Positions 760 to 30,744 of a DNA stretch of 32,000 bases are shown piece by piece. The DNA comes from Saccharolobus solfataricus (GTDB lineage: Archaea > Thermoproteota > Thermoprotei_A > Sulfolobales > Sulfolobaceae), in contig NZ_LT549890.1 of NCBI RefSeq assembly GCF_900079115.1, positions 1,140,001-1,172,000 of the forward strand. The letters run 5' to 3'. The position numbers and the translations under genes are program-made. Under the pieces are notes generated by a model. It was given only the letters and a program-made list of their open reading frames with translations. It was not told where the DNA came from and searched no databases. Each line of letters opens with the position of its first letter. Position 1 is the stretch's first letter.

Positions 760-1837
760 TACTTCGTCAGACTTTAAAGGGCAAGAAAACTTCACTCAGT
801 ATTGACGTCCAAGGTTCACCGCACCTCTTCACACTATACGTAAGGTCATTTACTCTCTTGGATATGGAGCGTAGGAACCTCGTTGCATCCCACATTAAGG
901 TCTCGAAGTCCGTGTAAATCTTCGAGTAGAGCCTTTTCTTGAGGACTGCCCACGGCCCCTCCGCCGGACTCTTATCCGGAGAGTAAGGCGGCAGATAAAC
1001 AAACTCCACCCCATTTTCCTCAAGGAATTCCCTCACTTCATTACCGTGTATTCTAGCATTATCCATCACTATCACGGTCTTCTCGTCCTTTATTACCTTC
1101 CTCAAGTAGAGTATAATATCTTTTGAGTTCAGCGAGGGCTTCTTGTATGTCGAATAGGAGAAAGTTATTCCCTCTTTACTAATCGTTATCCCGCCTACTA
1201 CTGCAAACCTCTTCCTCTTAGGGTTGACCTTTATCCCTCCTCCGACCTTCATCCAGCCTTTACCCTTGTTTATGTAGGACACGTACGACTCATCGAAGAT
1301 GTGTACCTTGTACCCTTCTCTTATTTTTTTAAAAAGCTTCTCCCCTTGTTCCTTCACCCACCTTTCTACAGCGTTATCGTCTCTAACGTAAGTTCTCTTT
1401 CCTTTCTTGTACTTGAAGCCTAACTTCTTGAGGACTGGGCTTAAACTCCTCGGGTTGTACTTTATCCCAAATTCCTTGTCAAGTATATACGCTATGAGCT
1501 TCAAGGTCCAGAAATCGTAGTTCAAGCCGAAATCTCTTGGGCTCTTTTCTAAGATTCGGACGAGCTTTTCCTCGTCCTTCAGTTTCGTGGGTCCCTTCCT
1601 CGGCTTAGCGCTCAGGTCACCTTTCCTCAACCACTTGTACACGGTAAAGATGGAGACGTCATACTTCTTGGCAACGTCCTTTATACTCATCCCGTTCCTC
1701 ACATCTTTTACAGCGTTAATCCTCCTCTCTTCCTCTTGTTTCTTGTTGAGCCTTATACCGTGCATTCTGGATTTCGGCATAACAATTTAGTATTACTCAT
1801 GAAATATAAATCTTGCTCTTTAAAGTCTGACGAAGTA
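760..1837 (-). mobile_element. IS630/Tc1-family insertion sequence, 1078 bp (ISC1078-like)
   Basis: Perfect terminal inverted repeats: TACTTCGTCAGACTTTAAAG at 760-779 and its reverse complement at 1818-1837. TA dinucleotides flank both ends (758-759, 1838-1839). One DDE transposase ORF inside. Confidence 0.85.
767..1780 (-). CDS. IS630-family DDE transposase
   Basis: 337 aa. N-terminal HTH (SIKDVAKKYDVSIFTVYKWLRKG) and DDE-type motifs (HIFDESYV, VMDNARIHGN). Lies between the IS terminal repeats. Confidence 0.9.
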   Translation of the reverse strand: MPKSRMHGIRLNKKQEEERRINAVKDVRNGMSIKDVAKKYDVSIFTVYKWLRKGDLSAKPRKGPTKLKDEEKLVRILEKSPRDFGLNYDFWTLKLIAYILDKEFGIKYNPRSLSPVLKKLGFKYKKGKRTYVRDDNAVERWVKEQGEKLFKKIREGYKVHIFDESYVSYINKGKGWMKVGGGIKVNPKRKRFAVVGGITISKEGITFSYSTYKKPSLNSKDIILYLRKVIKDEKTVIVMDNARIHGNEVREFLEENGVEFVYLPPYSPDKSPAEGPWAVLKKRLYSKIYTDFETLMWDATRFLRSISKRVNDLTYSVKRCGEPWTSILSEVFLPFKV

Positions 1838-17734: not shown

Positions 17735-17981
17735 AAAAAGTAAATTATTTGTATGTTGATATTTTTGGAGTTTTTAGGTTCTCTTTAGTAAGGTGTACAT
17801 ATGGGCGATTCATGTTTCCATTGCGAATTCATTTTATTTCAAATATTGTTACGAAATTAACTTAATGAACAGCAGTTATGTGATTTTAAGGGGATTTTAA
17901 GATTTTCATCAGATTCCTCATTTCATCTAAATTATTTTTAACGAAATTCTTCAATCCTTAAGTTCTCAACGTTCTAACCAC

Positions 17982-18166
17982 GGAGTTGAAGGGCTCTCGC
18001 AAACTCAGTCTTGACCTTGTTGATCCCTTGATTTTCGCCCTTCTTCATATTTTTCATTTTATGACCTCGATGATTAAAAACTTCCTCGGTAGTATTGAAT
18101 CCCTAGTAGTACAAAGGGAAAACTTGATAACTGCTGTAGGATAAGATGACTGCATGAGAACACTCC
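17982..18166. mobile_element. Possible 185-bp MITE sharing a terminus with the element at 29797-30138
   Basis: The right end ATAAGATGACTGCATGAGAACACTCC (18141-18166) is identical to 30112-30137. The left end GGAGTTGAAGGGCTCTCGCAAACTCAGTCTTGA is only a degenerate inverted match. Confidence 0.3.
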
Positions 18167-18657
18167 ACTTAGCATTTTACGTATTTTTCCTTCTCTTAAA
18201 CAGTTTCTTAATCCCACCCAAAGACTGATAAATATTTTTTATCAGCCTTGATATCCTATTGGCACCTAACTTCAAACCAAGGGAGTACTTGAACGAGAGG
18301 ACCAAGAACAAGGAGAGGACCTTCAAGGTCACAAAACCCTTACCCAAGTGAGGAAAGAACCCTTCTCCAACCCCAACGCCTTTAACTCCCTAATCAAAAC
18401 CTCAATATCCCAACGACTCTCTCATGAAGTTATTATGTCCTCTGAAGTATCATTTACATTAGTAGAGAAGAAGTACCTCTTACCCAAACCCTTATAATCA
18501 TCTACTACAAGTAACTTTATGGGAACACCTAGATACTCAACTAGGTATTCCCCTTGGGGGAACTCGCCAACGGGCACGAGTCTACCACCCTCGGTGACTC
18601 GCGCGCTGGACTTGAGTTCCCCCACAGTATCCTTTAAGAGAGTTTTGGAATTAACGT

Positions 18658-20016
18658 CAGTATGGGAATCTCATTTTTTGCGTAAAAAACGAGATGAATG
18701 GAATACAGAAAAAGTTGAGAGGATGAGAATTTCTGTAGAAAAGTTTGTATATACGAGGGCGGACTTGAACATATGAAACATGAGAATACAACTAAACCGG
18801 CGAAGTTCAACCGGGACTTCGCCAGGTCCGCCCTCAAGATAATTTACTCGATCCTCACTAAAATACTTTTCCTTGAGGAACTCCTCAGTGCCTTGCTTAA
18901 GGCGAGTGGGAGCTACTTGAGCAGGTTGGGGAAAGATGGGAGAAGAGCGTTGAGAAAATTGAACGCGGTTCAAGTTGAGGACGTGAGGGATGCGTTGAGG
19001 AAGATGGGGAGGATGACGTTAAGGGGAGTCAGGGACAGGAGGGTAGCGGTGGACTTCCATGCCATACCTCAATACCACGCTAACAAGAGTTTCTTGAGTA
19101 GGATAAAGCCAACTAAGGGGACGTCGTGGGGACTGGTTCAAGCTGCGATCTTCCTCCTGGGGAGGACGAGGAGCTTCTTGGACGTGATCCCAGTGACCGT
19201 GAAGAACGTAGCTGAAGGTTTCAAGGCGGTGATGGAGGTAATCGTGAAGGAGTTGGAGGAGGACAAGCTGAGGCTCGTCATGGTCTTCGCGGACAGGGAG
19301 TTCGCGGTGAACGAAGTGATTAGATACCTCTTGGAGTTGGGCTTGGACTTCGTCATATCTGCCAAAGCCCAGATGTACAAGAAGTACAAGGGGATGTTGC
19401 AAGATGTGGATGTGAGTTTTGGCGGAGTTAGATACACTGGCTTTCTCTGCGTGAGACATGGAACCGGAGCTTACCTCATTATCCTGAGGAAGGAAGACGG
19501 CAAGATTATTGCCTTCCTCGTGAGGAGGGAGATCGACCTTCACGATGCCATAGTCCTTGCCGAGATGTACAGGGAGAGGTGGGGGATAGAGAACGCCTTC
19601 CGCTCCCTTGAGGAGTTCAGGATCAGGACTAGGACTTGTGACGTGAGGAAGGAACTGGTTCTCGTTCTGCTTTCCTATCTTCTCTTGAATGTCTGGTTCT
19701 TGATCCGTTCTTGGAGGAAGGTAAAGTTGTGGGAGTTCTCGGTCTCCCTCTCGAATCTCCTCGATCGGGAGGTAAGAGTGGAACAGGGACGTGTGTTCCG
19801 TGAAGTGAAGACGTCATTCCCCTAGACTCCAGCTAACCCTATGCACCTCCTTCCAGCTACGTGAAATTAATTCTATATATTTATATTCTTCTGTTCAAAG
19901 CTGACTTATTAACTGTCATTTTCATAAAATATATGCAGTTATATTTGAATAAAACTGGTGCGGTTCAATCTTACATATATTATCATTTATATCAGAAAAA
20001 TGAGATTCCCATACTG
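18658..20016 (+). mobile_element. IS4-type insertion sequence, 1359 bp (ISC1359-like), nested in another transposase gene
   Basis: Terminal repeats CAGTATGGGAATCTCATTTTT (18658-18678) and its complement (19996-20016). Flanked by ACGT on both sides (18654-18657, 20017-20020). Confidence 0.8.
18773..19825 (+). CDS. DDE transposase of the ISC1359-like element
   Basis: 350 aa with VAVDFHAIP, VFADREFA and YRERWGIENAFRSLEEF. Visibly GC-richer than host genes. Confidence 0.85.
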   Translation: MKHENTTKPAKFNRDFARSALKIIYSILTKILFLEELLSALLKASGSYLSRLGKDGRRALRKLNAVQVEDVRDALRKMGRMTLRGVRDRRVAVDFHAIPQYHANKSFLSRIKPTKGTSWGLVQAAIFLLGRTRSFLDVIPVTVKNVAEGFKAVMEVIVKELEEDKLRLVMVFADREFAVNEVIRYLLELGLDFVISAKAQMYKKYKGMLQDVDVSFGGVRYTGFLCVRHGTGAYLIILRKEDGKIIAFLVRREIDLHDAIVLAEMYRERWGIENAFRSLEEFRIRTRTCDVRKELVLVLLSYLLLNVWFLIRSWRKVKLWEFSVSLSNLLDREVRVEQGRVFREVKTSFP

Positions 20017-20803
20017 ACGTACCAAGAATCAAAAACCTTGCATACAACACTAAACTCCTTCTCGAGCACTGGCAAAATTTCCAAGTATTCTTGTATTTTG
20101 GTCTTGAACTCAACTTCCTCTCCCCTCTCCCTTAACACCTCAACAACCTTTTGTGGTATATACGGTATTATTGTTACTACGTAGGCCTCGTTTGTCCTCA
20201 AGTCTTTTACTGTTATTAGTAAAAGTTGTATTGCCGGCTCGTATCTCTTGTGTTCTCTGCAGTAAAAGACTTGTGCTCCGTTTCTTGATACCGGTATCGC
20301 TCTCGCGTATTCTTTGTGGTCGTGTGTGTCGTCTATTATTAGTAGTACCGGGTGGTCTTTTACTATTTCCTTTACTGCTTTGATCAAGTTTACGTTTGCC
20401 AATTTGTCAAGGTTTTTTAGTACTGTCTCGTAGTCCATACCTATTACCTGGGCTATCTCGGTTGCCGTCCCGCCCATTACTCCTCCAAGTACCAGTTTTG
20501 CTAACGTGTCTTTTCTCACGTCGGTCATGGGGTCGGCTAGTAGCTGGATTGTCTCTTTAAGTGCGTGGTAATACTGTTGTATTGCCGGGATTTTATTCAC
20601 ACGATACTTTATTTGGTTAATTTTTAAAAGTTTTTAAGGTCTCCTCAAACTGCAAGGATTTTCCTATAAATGCTATCCACTATATCTTCAGTTTAATCAC
20701 AAGAAATATGGTTATTAATCATTAATAGTCTGAAATATATAATATTTTACTTAGGCTAACTAGACAAACTCAATTAATTTTAAGTTTTAATTTATCTCGA
20801 GAT

Positions 20804-20823
20804 AAACGAGATCCCCATACTAG
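20804..20823. repeat. Solo ISC1359-like terminal repeat remnant
   Basis: AAACGAGATCCCCATACTAG resembles the right end AAATGAGATTCCCATACTGA of the IS at 19998-20017. I found no partner repeat. Confidence 0.3.
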
Positions 20824-20862
20824 CATACAAATACTCCCATTATTATCATTTCGTGTTCACAT

Positions 20863-21033
20863 GTGGTAATATCCTCTTCCTCACCTTAAATCCTTTTCAA
20901 TTGAATTTCTTTGAACATAATCAGTTTAATTATTTTTACAAACTCAATATTAGCCAAGGAGAGTCATTTCTTGTAAAAAGATTTTTGGTCTATCGTCGCG
21001 CAAGGAGACCTCTACTCCTTTAACCCCACAAAG
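20863..21033 (+). repeat. Left arm of the imperfect inverted repeat bracketing the HEPN-MNT pair (includes mini-element L0, 20970-21033)
   Basis: Aligns by eye, roughly 70-75 percent with small indels, to the reverse complement of 21888-22066. An example is CTTCCTCACCTTAAATC in both arms. Confidence 0.6.
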
Positions 21034-21375
21034 TTAGACTTCTTTATATACGTCAAGAAATTTAGAATACCAAGATACATATTCTTCTTCATTAATCACG
21101 TGAATTTCAAAGGGATTTGGATTGCCTATAGCTTTATTAACCTCATGGTATATTTTCAACCTATCGAATTCATTGCTTACATTAGTTATTATTAAAACGT
21201 CAATATCACTATCAGGTCTGAAATTTCCCCTTATGTAGCTACCAAATAAAATAATCTTAGTACTTGGATCAATATTCTTAACAACTTCTTTAATTCTATC
21301 TAGGTAGAAATTTAAATTTTTTATGTAATTATCTCTCAATCTCTTATTCTCCTCAAGGACCTCGATTATAGACAT
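21034..21375 (-). CDS. Minimal nucleotidyltransferase (MNT) of a HEPN-MNT pair
   Basis: 113 aa. LFGSYIRGNFRPDSDIDVLI is the GSx10-SDxD nucleotidyltransferase signature. Confidence 0.85.
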   Translation of the reverse strand: MSIIEVLEENKRLRDNYIKNLNFYLDRIKEVVKNIDPSTKIILFGSYIRGNFRPDSDIDVLIITNVSNEFDRLKIYHEVNKAIGNPNPFEIHVINEEEYVSWYSKFLDVYKEV

Positions 21376-21719
21376 CCTAGACCCCTCATCATATTCTCTA
21401 CAAAGTTTAAAGCTTTTTCAGCACTCTCCTTTGAGAAAGTATAAGGTAAGTAGCGAGAAGAGATATAAGATTGTACTAAAAAATCCAGCATTAGCTCATC
21501 AATTTCTACCTTCTCAAATCTCCCTAGACTATTGATTAGTACCTTTAAATCATGAGTTTTAGGATAATCACCTAAATGAATATATAATTTATATTTAACG
21601 CAAAGTTGCAGTGCTTGTTCTGAATGAAATACCGATAAATTCCAAATTCCTTCCTCAAAATCTCTCCTTGCATCGTGCAAGAAATTTTTAGCGTTGTTGA
21701 GAAGAAAGCTCATAAGCAA
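21366..21719 (-). CDS. HEPN-domain protein partner of the MNT
   Basis: 117 aa, helical. Overlaps the MNT gene by 10 nt. Size, order and the KTHDL...SSRY regions fit a HEPN domain. Confidence 0.75.
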   Translation of the reverse strand: MLMSFLLNNAKNFLHDARRDFEEGIWNLSVFHSEQALQLCVKYKLYIHLGDYPKTHDLKVLINSLGRFEKVEIDELMLDFLVQSYISSRYLPYTFSKESAEKALNFVENMMRGLGCL

Positions 21720-21887
21720 TTACTCATGTTGCTCGATTTAAATTTATTGAAACTATATGAGGTAAAGTGTTCTTATGTCGTTATCCTATTCGATAATTAG
21801 TAGAAAAATTATATCATCATAGGAGTTTTTCTTAATTATCCGTTTTTAAATGTAGTAGCGTGATTAGAAGTAAGACTGAAAAAGGTT

Positions 21888-22066
21888 TATCTTAATGGGG
21901 GTTAAGGGGGCGGAAGACTCCATCCGTGACGGTAGACCCAAAATCGTTTTACAAAAATAATCCTGTTTGAGTAATATCAGATTCTGGAAAAATAATAGAA
22001 ATTATAGCTTTGTTAAGAATTCAACGACTGAAGAAAGATTTAAGGTGAGGAAGCCGGTATTATCAC
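21888..22066 (-). repeat. Right arm of the inverted repeat bracketing the HEPN-MNT pair (includes mini-element L1, 21891-21955)
   Basis: See the left arm. Homology resumes beyond the SM1-like MITE at 22146-22158, which suggests the MITE inserted into this arm. Confidence 0.6.
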
Positions 22067-22145
22067 TAGTATTTTGGAAAAGTTCTTAGACTATGATCTA
22101 GTGGTATATCCTTTGCCTAAAGCTATAGACTTTCTGAAGGCACTA
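22067..22145 (+). mobile_element. 79-bp MITE with ISC1048-like ends (SM1-like), copy A
   Basis: The element runs from TAGTATTTTGGAAAAGTTCTTAGAC to CTATAGACTTTCTGAAGGCACTA. Both ends mirror the ISC1048 termini at 14856 and 15903. Identical to copy C. Confidence 0.8.
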
Positions 22146-22408
22146 GTGTATCTCTGCTAATTAGTAGCCTTCATATAGTTAATTTCATAACAATCTTTGA
22201 AATAAAGTGAGTTCGCAATGAATATTTGAATCTCTCTTTCTTTGTTTCTATAATATTATATTTCTCTCATCTTATTTTTATTCAGTTATTTGCACTTAGG
22301 GCACTTCTGGAGAATAGTACTGAAGGAGAATGAAAAGTATTCATTAATCTATCTAATGTATAATATCTTAGATGGTATATCTTTTGCCATATTATAAGAA
22401 ACTTTTTA

Positions 22409-24311: not shown

Positions 24312-24495
24312 ATGAAATGTTTCTATAGTAAACTTATAAGTGTTACCAATTGAGTCACTTTAAGTATACATGAAAGAAATATTTTTACTGAATAGTAAAT
24401 ACGAATTGTATGAGCATAAATTGCTAAAGAGTCTAGTAGTAAAATTTTTAAAAAAAAAACTAACTATATGGATAAATAGAATAAGGGGAGAACGT

Positions 24496-24574
24496 TAGTG
24501 CTTTCAGAAAGTTTATAGCTTTAGGCAAAGGATATACCACTAGATCATAGTCTAAGAACTTTTCCAAAATACTA
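24496..24574 (-). mobile_element. 79-bp SM1-like MITE, copy B (inverted relative to A and C)
   Basis: The reverse complement differs from copy A at 2 positions. Confidence 0.8.
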
Positions 24575-25136: not shown

Positions 25137-26447
25137 ATGCTTAAGGACGATATCCTAAAATTACTAAAGGAGGATGCGGAGTTTAGAAAACAAGTAGAGG
25201 AAATATTAGGTATTTCATTTATAAATGTGACTCTAGCCGACTTAAAGGATATATTGAAAGGGTTATTAGCATCAATGGATAAACTAAAGAGTTCTGTAGA
25301 TCAGCTGGTTGATGCTCAAAGAAGGGCGGAAGAAAGAATAGCGAAGCTTGAAAATGCAGTGGAGCAACTGGTTGAGGCGCAAAAGAGGACTGATGAGAGA
25401 ATAACTAAATTGGAGGAGTCTACGAAGAAGTTGGAGCAAGCTGTACAAGAGCTTATTGAGGCTCAGAAAAAACATGATGAGAGAATAACTAAATTGGAGG
25501 AGTCTACGAAGAAGTTGGAGCAAGCTGTACAAGAGCTTATTGAGGCTCAGAAAAAACATGATGAGAGAATAACTAAATTGGAGGAGTCTACGAAGAAGTT
25601 GGAGCAAGCTGTACAAGAGCTTATTGAGGCTCAGAAAAAACATGATGAGAGAATAACTAAATTGGAGGAGTCTACGAAGAAGTTGGAGCAAGCTGTACAA
25701 GAGCTTATTGAGGCTCAGAAAAAACATGATGAGAGAATAACTAAATTGGAGGAGTCTACGAAGAAGTTGGAGCAAGCTGTACAAGAGCTTATTGAGGCTC
25801 AGAAAAAACATGATGAGAGAATAACTAAATTGGAGGAGTCTATACAGAAATTGGTTGATGCTCAAAGAAGGGCGGAAGAAAGAATAGCGAAGCTTGAAAA
25901 TGCAGTGGAGCAACTGGTTGAGGCGCAAAAGAGGACTGATGAGAGAATAACTAAATTGGAGGAGGTTACTATGAAATTAGTTGAATCTCAATTAGGTATG
26001 CAAAATGAGATTAGAGAGTTAAGGAAAGCTTTAGGAAGTATGGGTAAAAGGTGGGGAAGGGATTTTGAAAAGCTAATAATTGAAATAGTCGACGAGTTAG
26101 CTAAGCAAGAAGGACTAGATTTAAAGTACGTTAATAAGTTCACTTACAAGGATGATAATGGATTATTTGGTCTTAAAGGTGTTGAATATGATGTTGATCT
26201 CTTGATAAAGGACACTAAAGTGTATTTGATAGAGATTAAGTCCTATGTAGAGAAAGATGATGTGAACTGGGCTGCACATAAATTCAATGTGATAGAAAAG
26301 GCTTTAGGTCTAAAGAATACTATCAAAATGATATTTGCAGTTGATGCTACAAATTTAGCAACAAAGAAGGGTGAAGAGTTGGGAATTAAAGTCGTATACG
26401 GAAGTCAATCCGAGGAGGAAGAGAAAGGAGAAGTAAAGGTAGGTTGA
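25137..26447 (+). CDS. Coiled-coil protein with a C-terminal PD-(D/E)XK nuclease-like domain
   Basis: 436 aa. About 270 aa of heptad-rich repeats (…ERITKLEES…), then ...GVEYDVDLLIKDTKVYLIEIKS..., which fits a D...(D/E)xK restriction-endonuclease-like core. Confidence 0.65.
   Translation: MLKDDILKLLKEDAEFRKQVEEILGISFINVTLADLKDILKGLLASMDKLKSSVDQLVDAQRRAEERIAKLENAVEQLVEAQKRTDERITKLEESTKKLEQAVQELIEAQKKHDERITKLEESTKKLEQAVQELIEAQKKHDERITKLEESTKKLEQAVQELIEAQKKHDERITKLEESTKKLEQAVQELIEAQKKHDERITKLEESTKKLEQAVQELIEAQKKHDERITKLEESIQKLVDAQRRAEERIAKLENAVEQLVEAQKRTDERITKLEEVTMKLVESQLGMQNEIRELRKALGSMGKRWGRDFEKLIIEIVDELAKQEGLDLKYVNKFTYKDDNGLFGLKGVEYDVDLLIKDTKVYLIEIKSYVEKDDVNWAAHKFNVIEKALGLKNTIKMIFAVDATNLATKKGEELGIKVVYGSQSEEEEKGEVKVG
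25391..25842 (+). repeat. Perfect 84-bp tandem repeat, 5.4 copies, inside the coiled-coil gene
   Basis: Period 84 nt (28 aa, LEESTKKLEQAVQELIEAQKKHDERITK) starting at 25391. The sixth unit breaks at 25843. Flanked by a roughly 113-bp direct repeat (25306-25418 and 25852-25964). Confidence 0.9.
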
Positions 26448-29643: not shown

Positions 29644-29722
29644 TAGTATTTTGGAAAAGTTCTTAGACTATGATCTAGTGGTATATCCTTTGCCTAAAGC
29701 TATAGACTTTCTGAAGGCACTA
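29644..29722 (+). mobile_element. 79-bp SM1-like MITE, copy C
   Basis: Identical to copy A over 79 bp. Confidence 0.8.
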
Positions 29723-29796
29723 GTGTATAAAGAAAGGACGCTGAAAGGTAGCTGGCTAAAATGTTTATTGTAGAAGAATTTACTTACAAGAAAGTC

Positions 29797-30298: not shown

Positions 30299-30611
30299 TT
30301 TGTAAGATGATTTTGGATCTACTGTTATGGACGGAGCATCCTCACCTCGCGATGAGGATTTCCTGCTTCTCAGAGAAAACCTCGATCCCCTTACCCATAG
30401 CGGAGGTTACATCGAACTGAGCTGCAATGCCCCTTATGGAAGAGGGGTTATGGAGGGTTTGCTCTCCACAAGCATTAAGGGCAGTCCCACGACCCAGCTC
30501 CTTCAGCCAAGGTCAGATTCGTTATTTATTACTTCTTGGTAATAAACTTTTCTATAAGGGGACTATCCATCCTTACGGAAGGGGACATTCGCCCCCTTAA
30601 CCTCCATTAAG
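30299..30611 (-). ncRNA. Roughly 313-nt structured non-coding RNA; candidate RNase P RNA
   Basis: GC-rich island in AT-rich DNA with no credible ORF. Minus-strand reading gives GGAUAGUCC..UUAUAG (30560-30568), GAGAGCAAACC (30456-30466), GGGUAAGGGG (30387-30396) and ACAGUAGAUCC (30315-30325). These resemble RNase P conserved regions as I recall E. coli M1 RNA. Also a 9-bp stem with GCGA tetraloop (30338-30359) and several other hairpins. I could not identify a canonical P4 3' strand. Confidence 0.45.
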
Positions 30612-30744
30612 TTAAAGAGTTTATGGCTATTTTATGGATTGAATTTCTTGATGGATATGGTTTTAAGATAAGGGCTAAGAGACTTATTGAGGCCATATCA
30701 ATCCATGATGAGTTGTTAGATCAGCTACAAAAATTAATAAGGGT

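Follow-up and report, generated by a model that had tools for sequence, protein, structure and literature searches.

The DNA analysed here, called the window throughout, is the whole 32,000-nucleotide stretch of Saccharolobus solfataricus whose first lines stand above (NCBI RefSeq assembly GCF_900079115.1, contig NZ_LT549890.1, positions 1,140,001 to 1,172,000 of the forward strand). It corresponds to ~1.06-1.09 Mb of S. solfataricus P2 (AE006641.1). It holds a small module of two overlapping genes, one with a HEPN domain and one encoding a minimal nucleotidyltransferase (MNT), with the two arms of a long inverted repeat on either side. A sequence-only reading had proposed that these arms frame a mobile cassette. 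Here we describe what the arms are and how they relate to the gene pair. The features at the locus are the following.

20841..20996, minus strand: left arm proper, probable relic of the left end of an insertion sequence (IS), with its terminal repeat at 20996-20980 (ACGATAGACCAAAAATC), one terminus and no transposase
20997..21033, no strand: 37-nt unit abutting the IS terminus, consisting of ~11 nt of repeat extension and then sequence like the 3' end of the element SMN1
21034..21375, minus strand: MNT gene, 113 aa (PF01909, E 4e-15)
21366..21719, minus strand: HEPN-domain gene, 117 aa from TTG or 115 aa from the ATG at 21713 (PF05168, E 5e-28)
21720..21773, minus strand: upstream region of the pair, conserved with S. 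shibatae B12, whose homology stops at 21773
21774..21890, no strand: spacer of 117 nt, without S. shibatae counterpart and without IS homology
21891..21928, no strand: 38-nt unit abutting the other IS terminus, reverse complement CACGGATGGAGTCTTCCGCCCCCTTAACCCCCATTAAG, equal to the last 38 nt of SMN1-like elements
21929..22066, plus strand: right arm proper, probable relic of an IS left end, with its terminal repeat at 21929-21945, cut at the centre of a palindrome (..GGTATTATCAC)
22067..22146, no strand: 80-bp miniature inverted-repeat transposable element (MITE), SM1-like by size, at the right-arm break point

Profile matches confirm both domains, and the earlier identification of the genes as a HEPN-MNT pair stands. 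Both genes lie on the minus strand and overlap by 10 nt. Four complete genomes of S. solfataricus each encode an identical MNT. Two-gene HEPN-MNT modules are type VII HepT-MntA toxin-antitoxin systems. The window pair resembles these in its overlapping HEPN and MNT genes and in the catalytic motif G-S-x(9-13)-D-x-D, which the MNT translation contains as FGSYIRGNFRPDSDID. It differs in that its HEPN protein belongs to PF05168 and lacks R-x(4-6)-H. On direct reading of the 117-aa translation no such RNase motif was found, and an RNase toxin activity of the protein is not evident from its sequence. The native promoter of the pair is presumed to lie within 21720-21773.

The inverted repeat around the pair is real. 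When the left arm as first delimited (20863-21033) was aligned to the reverse complement of the right arm (21888-22066), 132/184 columns matched (72%). The local alignment score was 107, compared with 18.6 +/- 2.8 and a maximum of 32 in 300 dinucleotide-preserving shuffles. An independent repeat search of the window returned arm blocks of 60 nt at 78% and 33 nt at 85% identity, and the longest identical run common to both arms is 17 nt. The reported placement also holds: the left arm ends at 21033, directly beside the MNT stop codon (21034-21036), and the right arm starts 169 nt upstream of the HEPN start at 21719. The right arm had been thought to continue at 22146-22158, beyond the MITE. We looked for such a continuation and found none. 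IS homology ends at 22066, and bases 22147-22185 match the flank of another MITE copy (24457-24495). The arm that reaches farther outward, by ~22 nt and to ~20841, is the left one.

The identity of the arms came from elements that are still intact. The second arm motif, ATTTTGGGTCTACCGT, was used as a query and found an IMG/VR contig (L058) in which it occurs twice, inverted and ~1.2 kb apart, enclosing an intact 349-aa transposase of the ISH3 family (NCBIfam NF033541, E 4e-89; DUF4322 and DDE_Tnp_1). Arm-like sequence there occupies the interval from the left terminus to the transposase start codon. The elements in L058 and in L111, an intact IS with a 364-aa transposase and the sole true relative from the metagenome scan, begin with the 17-nt terminal repeat ACGGTAGACCCAAAATC, as does a P2 copy of ISC1160 (L064). 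In the window this repeat stands at 21929-21945, and a variant with 2 mismatches stands at 20996-20980. An ISC1160-type terminal repeat is found at both ends of the elements in L064, L058 and L011, a contig of an archaeal metagenome-assembled genome (MAG). In L064 the two repeats (ACGGAAGACCCAAAATC and GATTTTGGGTCTACCGT) lie 1165 bp apart, and the first open reading frame (ORF1), labelled 'transposon ISC1160' in the P2 annotation, begins ~230 nt from the left terminus.

Both arms are colinear with the left ends in L058, L111 and L064 as far as the ORF start, and each retains ~140-160 nt, from the terminal repeat to the start of the transposase ORF. The left arm can be aligned to the intact L058 element from the terminus through ATGGTAA, covers positions 6-30 and 111-179 of the L064 ISC1160 copy, and has a body that extends leftward to the palindrome and a vestigial ATG at ~20841. 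Between the right arm and the left end of the L111 element identity is 88%, and the final 30 nt of the arm are identical. These data indicate that both arms are, very probably, dead left-end fragments of two different ISC1160-family (ISH3) insertion sequences, lying in opposite orientation on the two sides of a resident gene pair. Such partial ISC1160 copies are already known from S. solfataricus P2, and in this IS-rich region the feature amounts to ordinary IS debris.

The arms share with ISC1160 its 17-nt terminal repeat, a colinear left end up to ORF1 (DUF4322) and a palindrome at the ORF start. They differ from it in being fragments of ~140-160 nt with one terminus and no transposase, and in their sequence, which is 63-69% identical to the canonical P2 copy and nearer to IS copies of other archaea (76-88%). 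Two other origins were considered and dropped. The TnpB pseudogene beside arm-like sequence in L011 had prompted the idea that an arm is the left end of an IS200/IS605 TnpB element. This was abandoned because in L058, L111 and L064 intact ISH3-family elements begin, at their left end, with arm sequence; L011 holds an ISC1160-family IS that adjoins the pseudogene, and the TnpB neighbour is incidental. An origin of the arms from a tRNA or structured RNA was likewise rejected, with no Rfam match at gathering level, E-values at chance level and no tRNAs. Predicted folds were only modestly above shuffles in tests of the arms and of 30299-30611.

Left-end identities were computed over ~135 nt against five IS left ends, as follows.

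Right arm and left arm: 74%
Right arm and L111: 88%
Right arm and L011: 79%
Right arm and L058: 76%
Right arm and canonical ISC1160 (P2): 69%
Left arm and any other: 63-74%

Because the right arm is 74% identical to the left arm but 88% identical to L111, while the gene pair is 92% identical between species, the arms must derive from distinct members of the family. They represent separate IS lineages, not a duplicated pair copied in place.

The polarity of the two fragments is opposite to that expected of cassette ends. What had been taken for the inner ends of the arms are the true IS termini, and the supposed outer ends are internal IS sequence broken at the palindrome. The only termini near the arms, 20980-20996 and 21929-21945, both face inward toward the gene pair. 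Since both IS termini point at the pair, it falls outside the two relics. To a DDE transposase using these two termini, the element would comprise all DNA but the gene pair, and this is the wrong polarity for a transposon that carries the pair. An ISC1160 transposase would thus be unable to move the genes, these being flanking DNA of both relics, and neither relic would be able to move itself, having one terminus and no transposase.

Around the arms we found no second ISC1160-type terminus with up to 3 mismatches in the 17-mer, leaving one terminus per arm, and tblastn found no transposase or ORF1 remnant next to them. Having a single terminus and no transposase, the arms are relics, neither complete IS copies nor MITEs. 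As for target-site duplications, the flanks of complete copies resemble extensions of the terminal repeat, with no direct repeat seen, and the relics are single-ended.

These results bear on the possibility that each arm is a complete ISC1160-derived MITE, with a left end and a short right end, and that the two inserted independently beside the pair. The arms are indeed MITE-sized (~175 bp), lack ORFs and are similar in extent, and MITEs are abundant in this genome (SM1-SM4; PMC10969869). However, each arm carries one ISC1160-type terminus at the threshold given above, and the right arm is 88% identical to an intact IS left end up to its break, with no right-end sequence attached. Apart from an IS copy, nothing else from Sulfolobales in the representative-genome scan matched the 17-mer conserved in the arms. 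We therefore regard two complete MITEs as highly improbable.

In our account of the relics, each keeps the left terminal repeat plus ~120-145 nt up to the transposase start. Intact elements have a palindrome over the transposase start codon, and each relic is truncated at this palindrome or slightly beyond it. The right break point is now occupied by the 80-bp MITE. The palindrome at which the outer ends are broken (GGTGAGGAAG..GGTATTATCAC / GTG..) reads GGTGAGGAAG..TATCAC/GTG..CTTCCCCACC in ISC1160-family elements. It lies at 22040-22066 in the window, at 1455-1480 (minus strand) in L111 and at ~260-285 in L005, a contig discussed below. The palindrome is alike the truncation point of the right arm, the insertion site of the MITE and the recombination junction of L005. 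It may act as a translational control element and as a fragile site.

We then turned to other copies of the gene pair. HEPN homologues with 95-68% identity occur in S. shibatae B12, three MAGs, JGI hot-spring contigs, S. tokodaii and Acidianus, and four homologous loci were compared with their flanks. In S. shibatae B12, which holds the closest orthologue, blastn matched window positions 21773-21028 to 5943-6685 of contig L030 at 92% nucleotide identity, a span that runs from 54 nt upstream of HEPN to 6 nt beyond the MNT stop. Four other contexts are 74-79% identical, and nucleotide homology is limited to the genes and their immediate flanks. At the loci compared, which lie in different neighbourhoods, we found neither arm sequence nor an ISC1160 terminus; none of the homologous pairs compared, in five distinct contexts, is framed by the arms. 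In S. shibatae B12 the orthologous pair directly follows a second, unrelated HEPN-MNT pair (L030 4827-5571). An SMN1-like element there (L030 3948-4245) lies ~0.6 kb upstream of the first pair and ~1.7 kb upstream of the orthologous one.

We also scanned representative genomes, viral contigs and metagenomes with a 17-mer common to both arms (CTTCCTCACCTTAAATC). Most matches were chance matches in unrelated bacteria. L011, an IS copy, was the one true relative among the representative genomes, and L111 was the only other across the scans. Viral contigs gave no related sequence, no second arm-flanked unit appeared in the representative-genome, viral or metagenome scans, and no copy of the arms was found on Sulfolobus plasmids. 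The genome, viral, metagenome and plasmid searches, which did not cover the whole P2 chromosome, found no further arm copies with the same boundaries.

These observations weigh on the earlier proposal of a non-autonomous transposable cassette whose ~175-bp arms serve as terminal inverted repeats and which is mobilised in trans. A long and significant inverted repeat does enclose a two-gene module, as the proposal holds. However, the termini that a transposase recognises are the inner ones and face inward, and the outer ends are IS interior broken at the palindrome. No copies were found elsewhere in plasmid, genome, viral or metagenome searches, and the homologous pairs compared never carry the arms. 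The cassette is contradicted by the polarity of the termini, by arms that are incomplete and divergent, and by the absence of arms at homologous pairs, and we give it next to no credence.

We compared the locus in S. solfataricus CP160827 (L003) with that in S. shibatae (L030). Two common markers lie on the same side of the pair: a block of YHS and Rdx-pyridine nucleotide oxidoreductase genes, and 86 nt from the 5' end of ISC1217 (window 20591-20675). The two markers are in the minus orientation in this comparison, and the 746-bp gene-pair segment matches in the plus orientation. The gene-pair segment thus appears to be inverted relative to its neighbours when S. solfataricus is compared with S. 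shibatae B12. We infer that, after the split from S. shibatae, the locus was rearranged at the IS copies, which either mediated the event or mark its position; the simplest such event is inversion of the ~0.75-0.9 kb between them. An attempt to reconstruct the far side through the PIG-L gene, which follows the pair in S. shibatae, failed: S. solfataricus has no orthologue of that gene, and in S. caldissimus PIG-L is present without a gene pair of this kind.

Brugger and colleagues (2004; cited in PMC10969869) reportedly described how insertion sequences mediate inversions and shuffle the genome in Sulfolobus. The present locus is similar in that a segment bounded by inverted IS sequences is inverted relative to its neighbours, with the relics as recombination points. 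It differs in that the segment is tiny (~0.9 kb) and lies between old copies that have diverged, so that the event is not reconstructable.

Strain differences are also seen beyond the ISC1217 copy. Past it, CP160827 (L003 12994-15005) enters the YHS/oxidoreductase block, like S. shibatae, and P2 (L002) and two other strains enter a PIN/CcdA pair with IS110 and IS630 elements instead. To judge from these assemblies, this difference is probably a strain-level rearrangement at an IS cluster.

The right arm shows recombination of its own. In the Logan contig L005 (SRR4096252, 1-399, with four similar places), the right arm is fused to other IS sequence at GGTGAGGA. The first part of the contig is identical to the P2 right arm at 120/123 positions, and the remainder is identical to canonical ISC1160, including ORF1, at 263/276. 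In samples of this type the right arm lacks the 80-bp MITE and runs into canonical ISC1160 ORF1, giving a chimeric IS left end. L005 would imply a strain-specific rearrangement at the right-arm break, and it shows that the right-arm relic recombines homologously with other IS copies. The suggestion that the pair is a recombination-delimited module thus finds some support in the inverted segment and in the recombined right arm; what these mark are ordinary IS rearrangement points.

An inverted segment between inverted repeats could also be a switch, with the arms kept as sites at which recombination flips the segment that carries the toxin-antitoxin genes. Both the inversion relative to the neighbours, as compared with S. 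shibatae, and the samples in which recombination has joined a second ISC1160 copy to the right arm would fit. However, the orientation of the gene pair is the same in all four complete S. solfataricus genomes and in six assembled contigs. The arms are only 72-74% identical, their longest common run is 17 nt, and no recombinase gene is adjacent. The promoter region travels with the genes, so flipping would not change expression. A maintained switch is accordingly extremely improbable.

The sequence-only reading had described an inner 65-nt mini-element in each arm, homologous to the ends of a structured RNA at 30299-30611. The mini-element is composite: the IS terminal inverted repeat makes up its first 17-28 nt, and homology to the 30299-30611 element holds only for the last ~27-38 nt, which match that element's 3' end. 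The full 65 nt consist of the 17-nt repeat, ~11 nt of the form xAxGGRNGRRG, and ~27 nt of SMN1-like 3' end (..CACGGAWGGRGWCTTYCGCCCCCTTAACCCCCAT). The ~11-nt stretch follows the repeat at 8/8 family termini, which include left and right ends and come from several genomes, and probably belongs to the IS end. Homology to S. shibatae begins at 21028, within the 37-nt unit beside the left relic (20997-21033).

The supposed structured RNA matches no Rfam family and resolves into an IS terminus and a non-coding element.

30309..30614, plus strand: solo ISC1160-type terminus (30309-30325) followed by an SMN1-like non-coding element (~30326-30614)

From 30325 onward, this element is 76.5% identical to sequences in pARN4 and NC_006425 over 88% of the query. 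A three-way alignment also supports full-length homology to these elements of S. islandicus plasmids, and the S. shibatae SMN1-like copy is 84% identical to pARN4. According to PMC3718332, SMN1 is non-autonomous, 320 bp long and found in S. islandicus; here SM1 and SMN1 are names given by size and host only. The likeness to these elements lies in the resemblance of 30326-30614 to the pARN4 and NC_006425 copies and in the 38-nt units beside the arms, which equal the SMN1-like 3' end. The difference is that here the elements are neighbours of IS relics, not parts of a cassette.

The same junction occurs away from the gene pair. The right end of the canonical P2 ISC1160 copy (L064 3921-3975) has the same SMN1-like junction, identical to the right-arm unit at 31/38 positions. 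Three ISC1160-family termini, those of both arms and the canonical P2 right end, join the last ~38 nt of an SMN1-like element at the same position. A fourth, the solo terminus (30309-30340), adjoins the 5' start of a complete SMN1-like element at a similar motif, YAYGGANGGRG. The ISC1160/SMN1-like junction of 27-38 nt is thus recurrent and, being present at another P2 ISC1160 copy, not specific to the gene pair. Its recurrence suggests an IS target preference or an IS end longer than annotated.

Two inward-facing IS ends around a gene pair also recall composite transposons such as Tn5 and Tn10, in which inverted IS copies have their inside ends toward the cargo. At the present locus the pair could have been brought in by a decayed transposon of this kind, formed by two complete inverted ISC1160-family copies that were later reduced to their inside ends. 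Inverted IS sequences do flank a small cargo with inside (left) ends facing it, the geometry expected of a Tn5/Tn10-like remnant, and in L005 the right arm is joined to ISC1160 ORF1 sequence. Against this, the pair keeps neighbours that it has in S. shibatae (the ISC1217-end fragment and the YHS block), there without ISC1160, which argues that it is resident and was not delivered. The arms, at 74% identity, represent different lineages, though the two species are 92% identical in the genes. L005 joins a canonical ISC1160 body to a non-canonical left end, which makes it a recombinant and not an original copy. No other locus with the arrangement IS, pair, IS was found in the genome and metagenome scans or among the homologous loci, and intact outside ends and a working transposase were not found at the arms. 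The locus therefore differs from Tn5 and Tn10 in its divergent arms, in lacking outside ends and a transposase, and in a cargo that looks resident and has no second location. Delivery by a composite transposon is very unlikely.

A broader conjecture takes the inward ISC1160 left ends as all that remains of an archaeal composite transposon, or of an inversion unit driven by IS activity, by which the HEPN-MNT module was carried or flipped, with an ISC1160-family targeting site 38 nt from the SMN1-like 3' end. Such targeting would explain the junction common to both relics and the canonical copy. We consider the conjecture as a whole unlikely.

Several points weigh against reading the arms as two independent IS relics around a resident, inverted pair. 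Both relics are cut at nearly one internal point and both abut a like 38-nt unit. This coincidence needs a cause; a putative deletion or insertion hot spot at the palindrome, together with an IS target preference, would explain it. The case for the inversion depends on a single outgroup; of the two markers, one (X, the 86-nt fragment, 78% identical) is itself IS-derived, and the HEPN-distal side has no common marker. In addition, the representative-genome scan missed the window's own two sites, the source genome or this stretch being apparently masked or absent from that collection, and the negative results on arm copies do not extend to the rest of P2.

With the arms read as IS relics, the value of the analysis is mainly corrective: an apparent new mobile cassette becomes relics of a catalogued IS in a very IS-rich archaeal genome. 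The lesson is that the terminus recognised by the transposase, and its polarity, should be located before inverted repeats are called cassette ends. The region also offers a small, datable case of IS-associated inversion and recombination between Saccharolobus strains, and the recurrent junction between the ISC1160 terminus and the SMN1-like 3' end may reflect target preference.

The surroundings of the locus are dense in IS sequence. The window holds four ISC1160-type termini, and a complete element of the same ISH3 family lies to the left of the left arm.

18654..20020, plus strand: complete ISH3-family IS, 1367 bp, with a 350-aa transposase and perfect 25-nt terminal repeats

This element interrupts an ISC1217 copy (~18150-20760) immediately left of the left arm, and IS110- and IS630-type genes lie farther left. 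In such a region it is no surprise that a small gene pair should be flanked by two relics from a single IS family. A relic resembling a terminus of the complete element lies directly beside the left arm, at 20791-20826.

The MITE insertion reported beside the right arm is a true repeat with further copies in the window. The 80-bp element recurs unchanged at 29644-29723 and with 97% identity at 24496-24574, giving three copies in 32 kb. The ~39 nt at 22147-22185 and 24457-24495 are extra flank common to two of these copies. Copies at 86-89% identity occur in S. tokodaii loci, one of which (L041 5495-5578) lies ~400 nt upstream of the HEPN homologue. A 63-nt repeat (84%, inverted) is present in two intergenic regions, 22170-22232 and 17807-17869. 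Farther right, 25137-26447 encodes a coiled-coil protein with DUF3782 and a PD-(D/E)XK domain. It is 324, 408, 436 or 464 aa long across strains, which suggests repeat-length variation.

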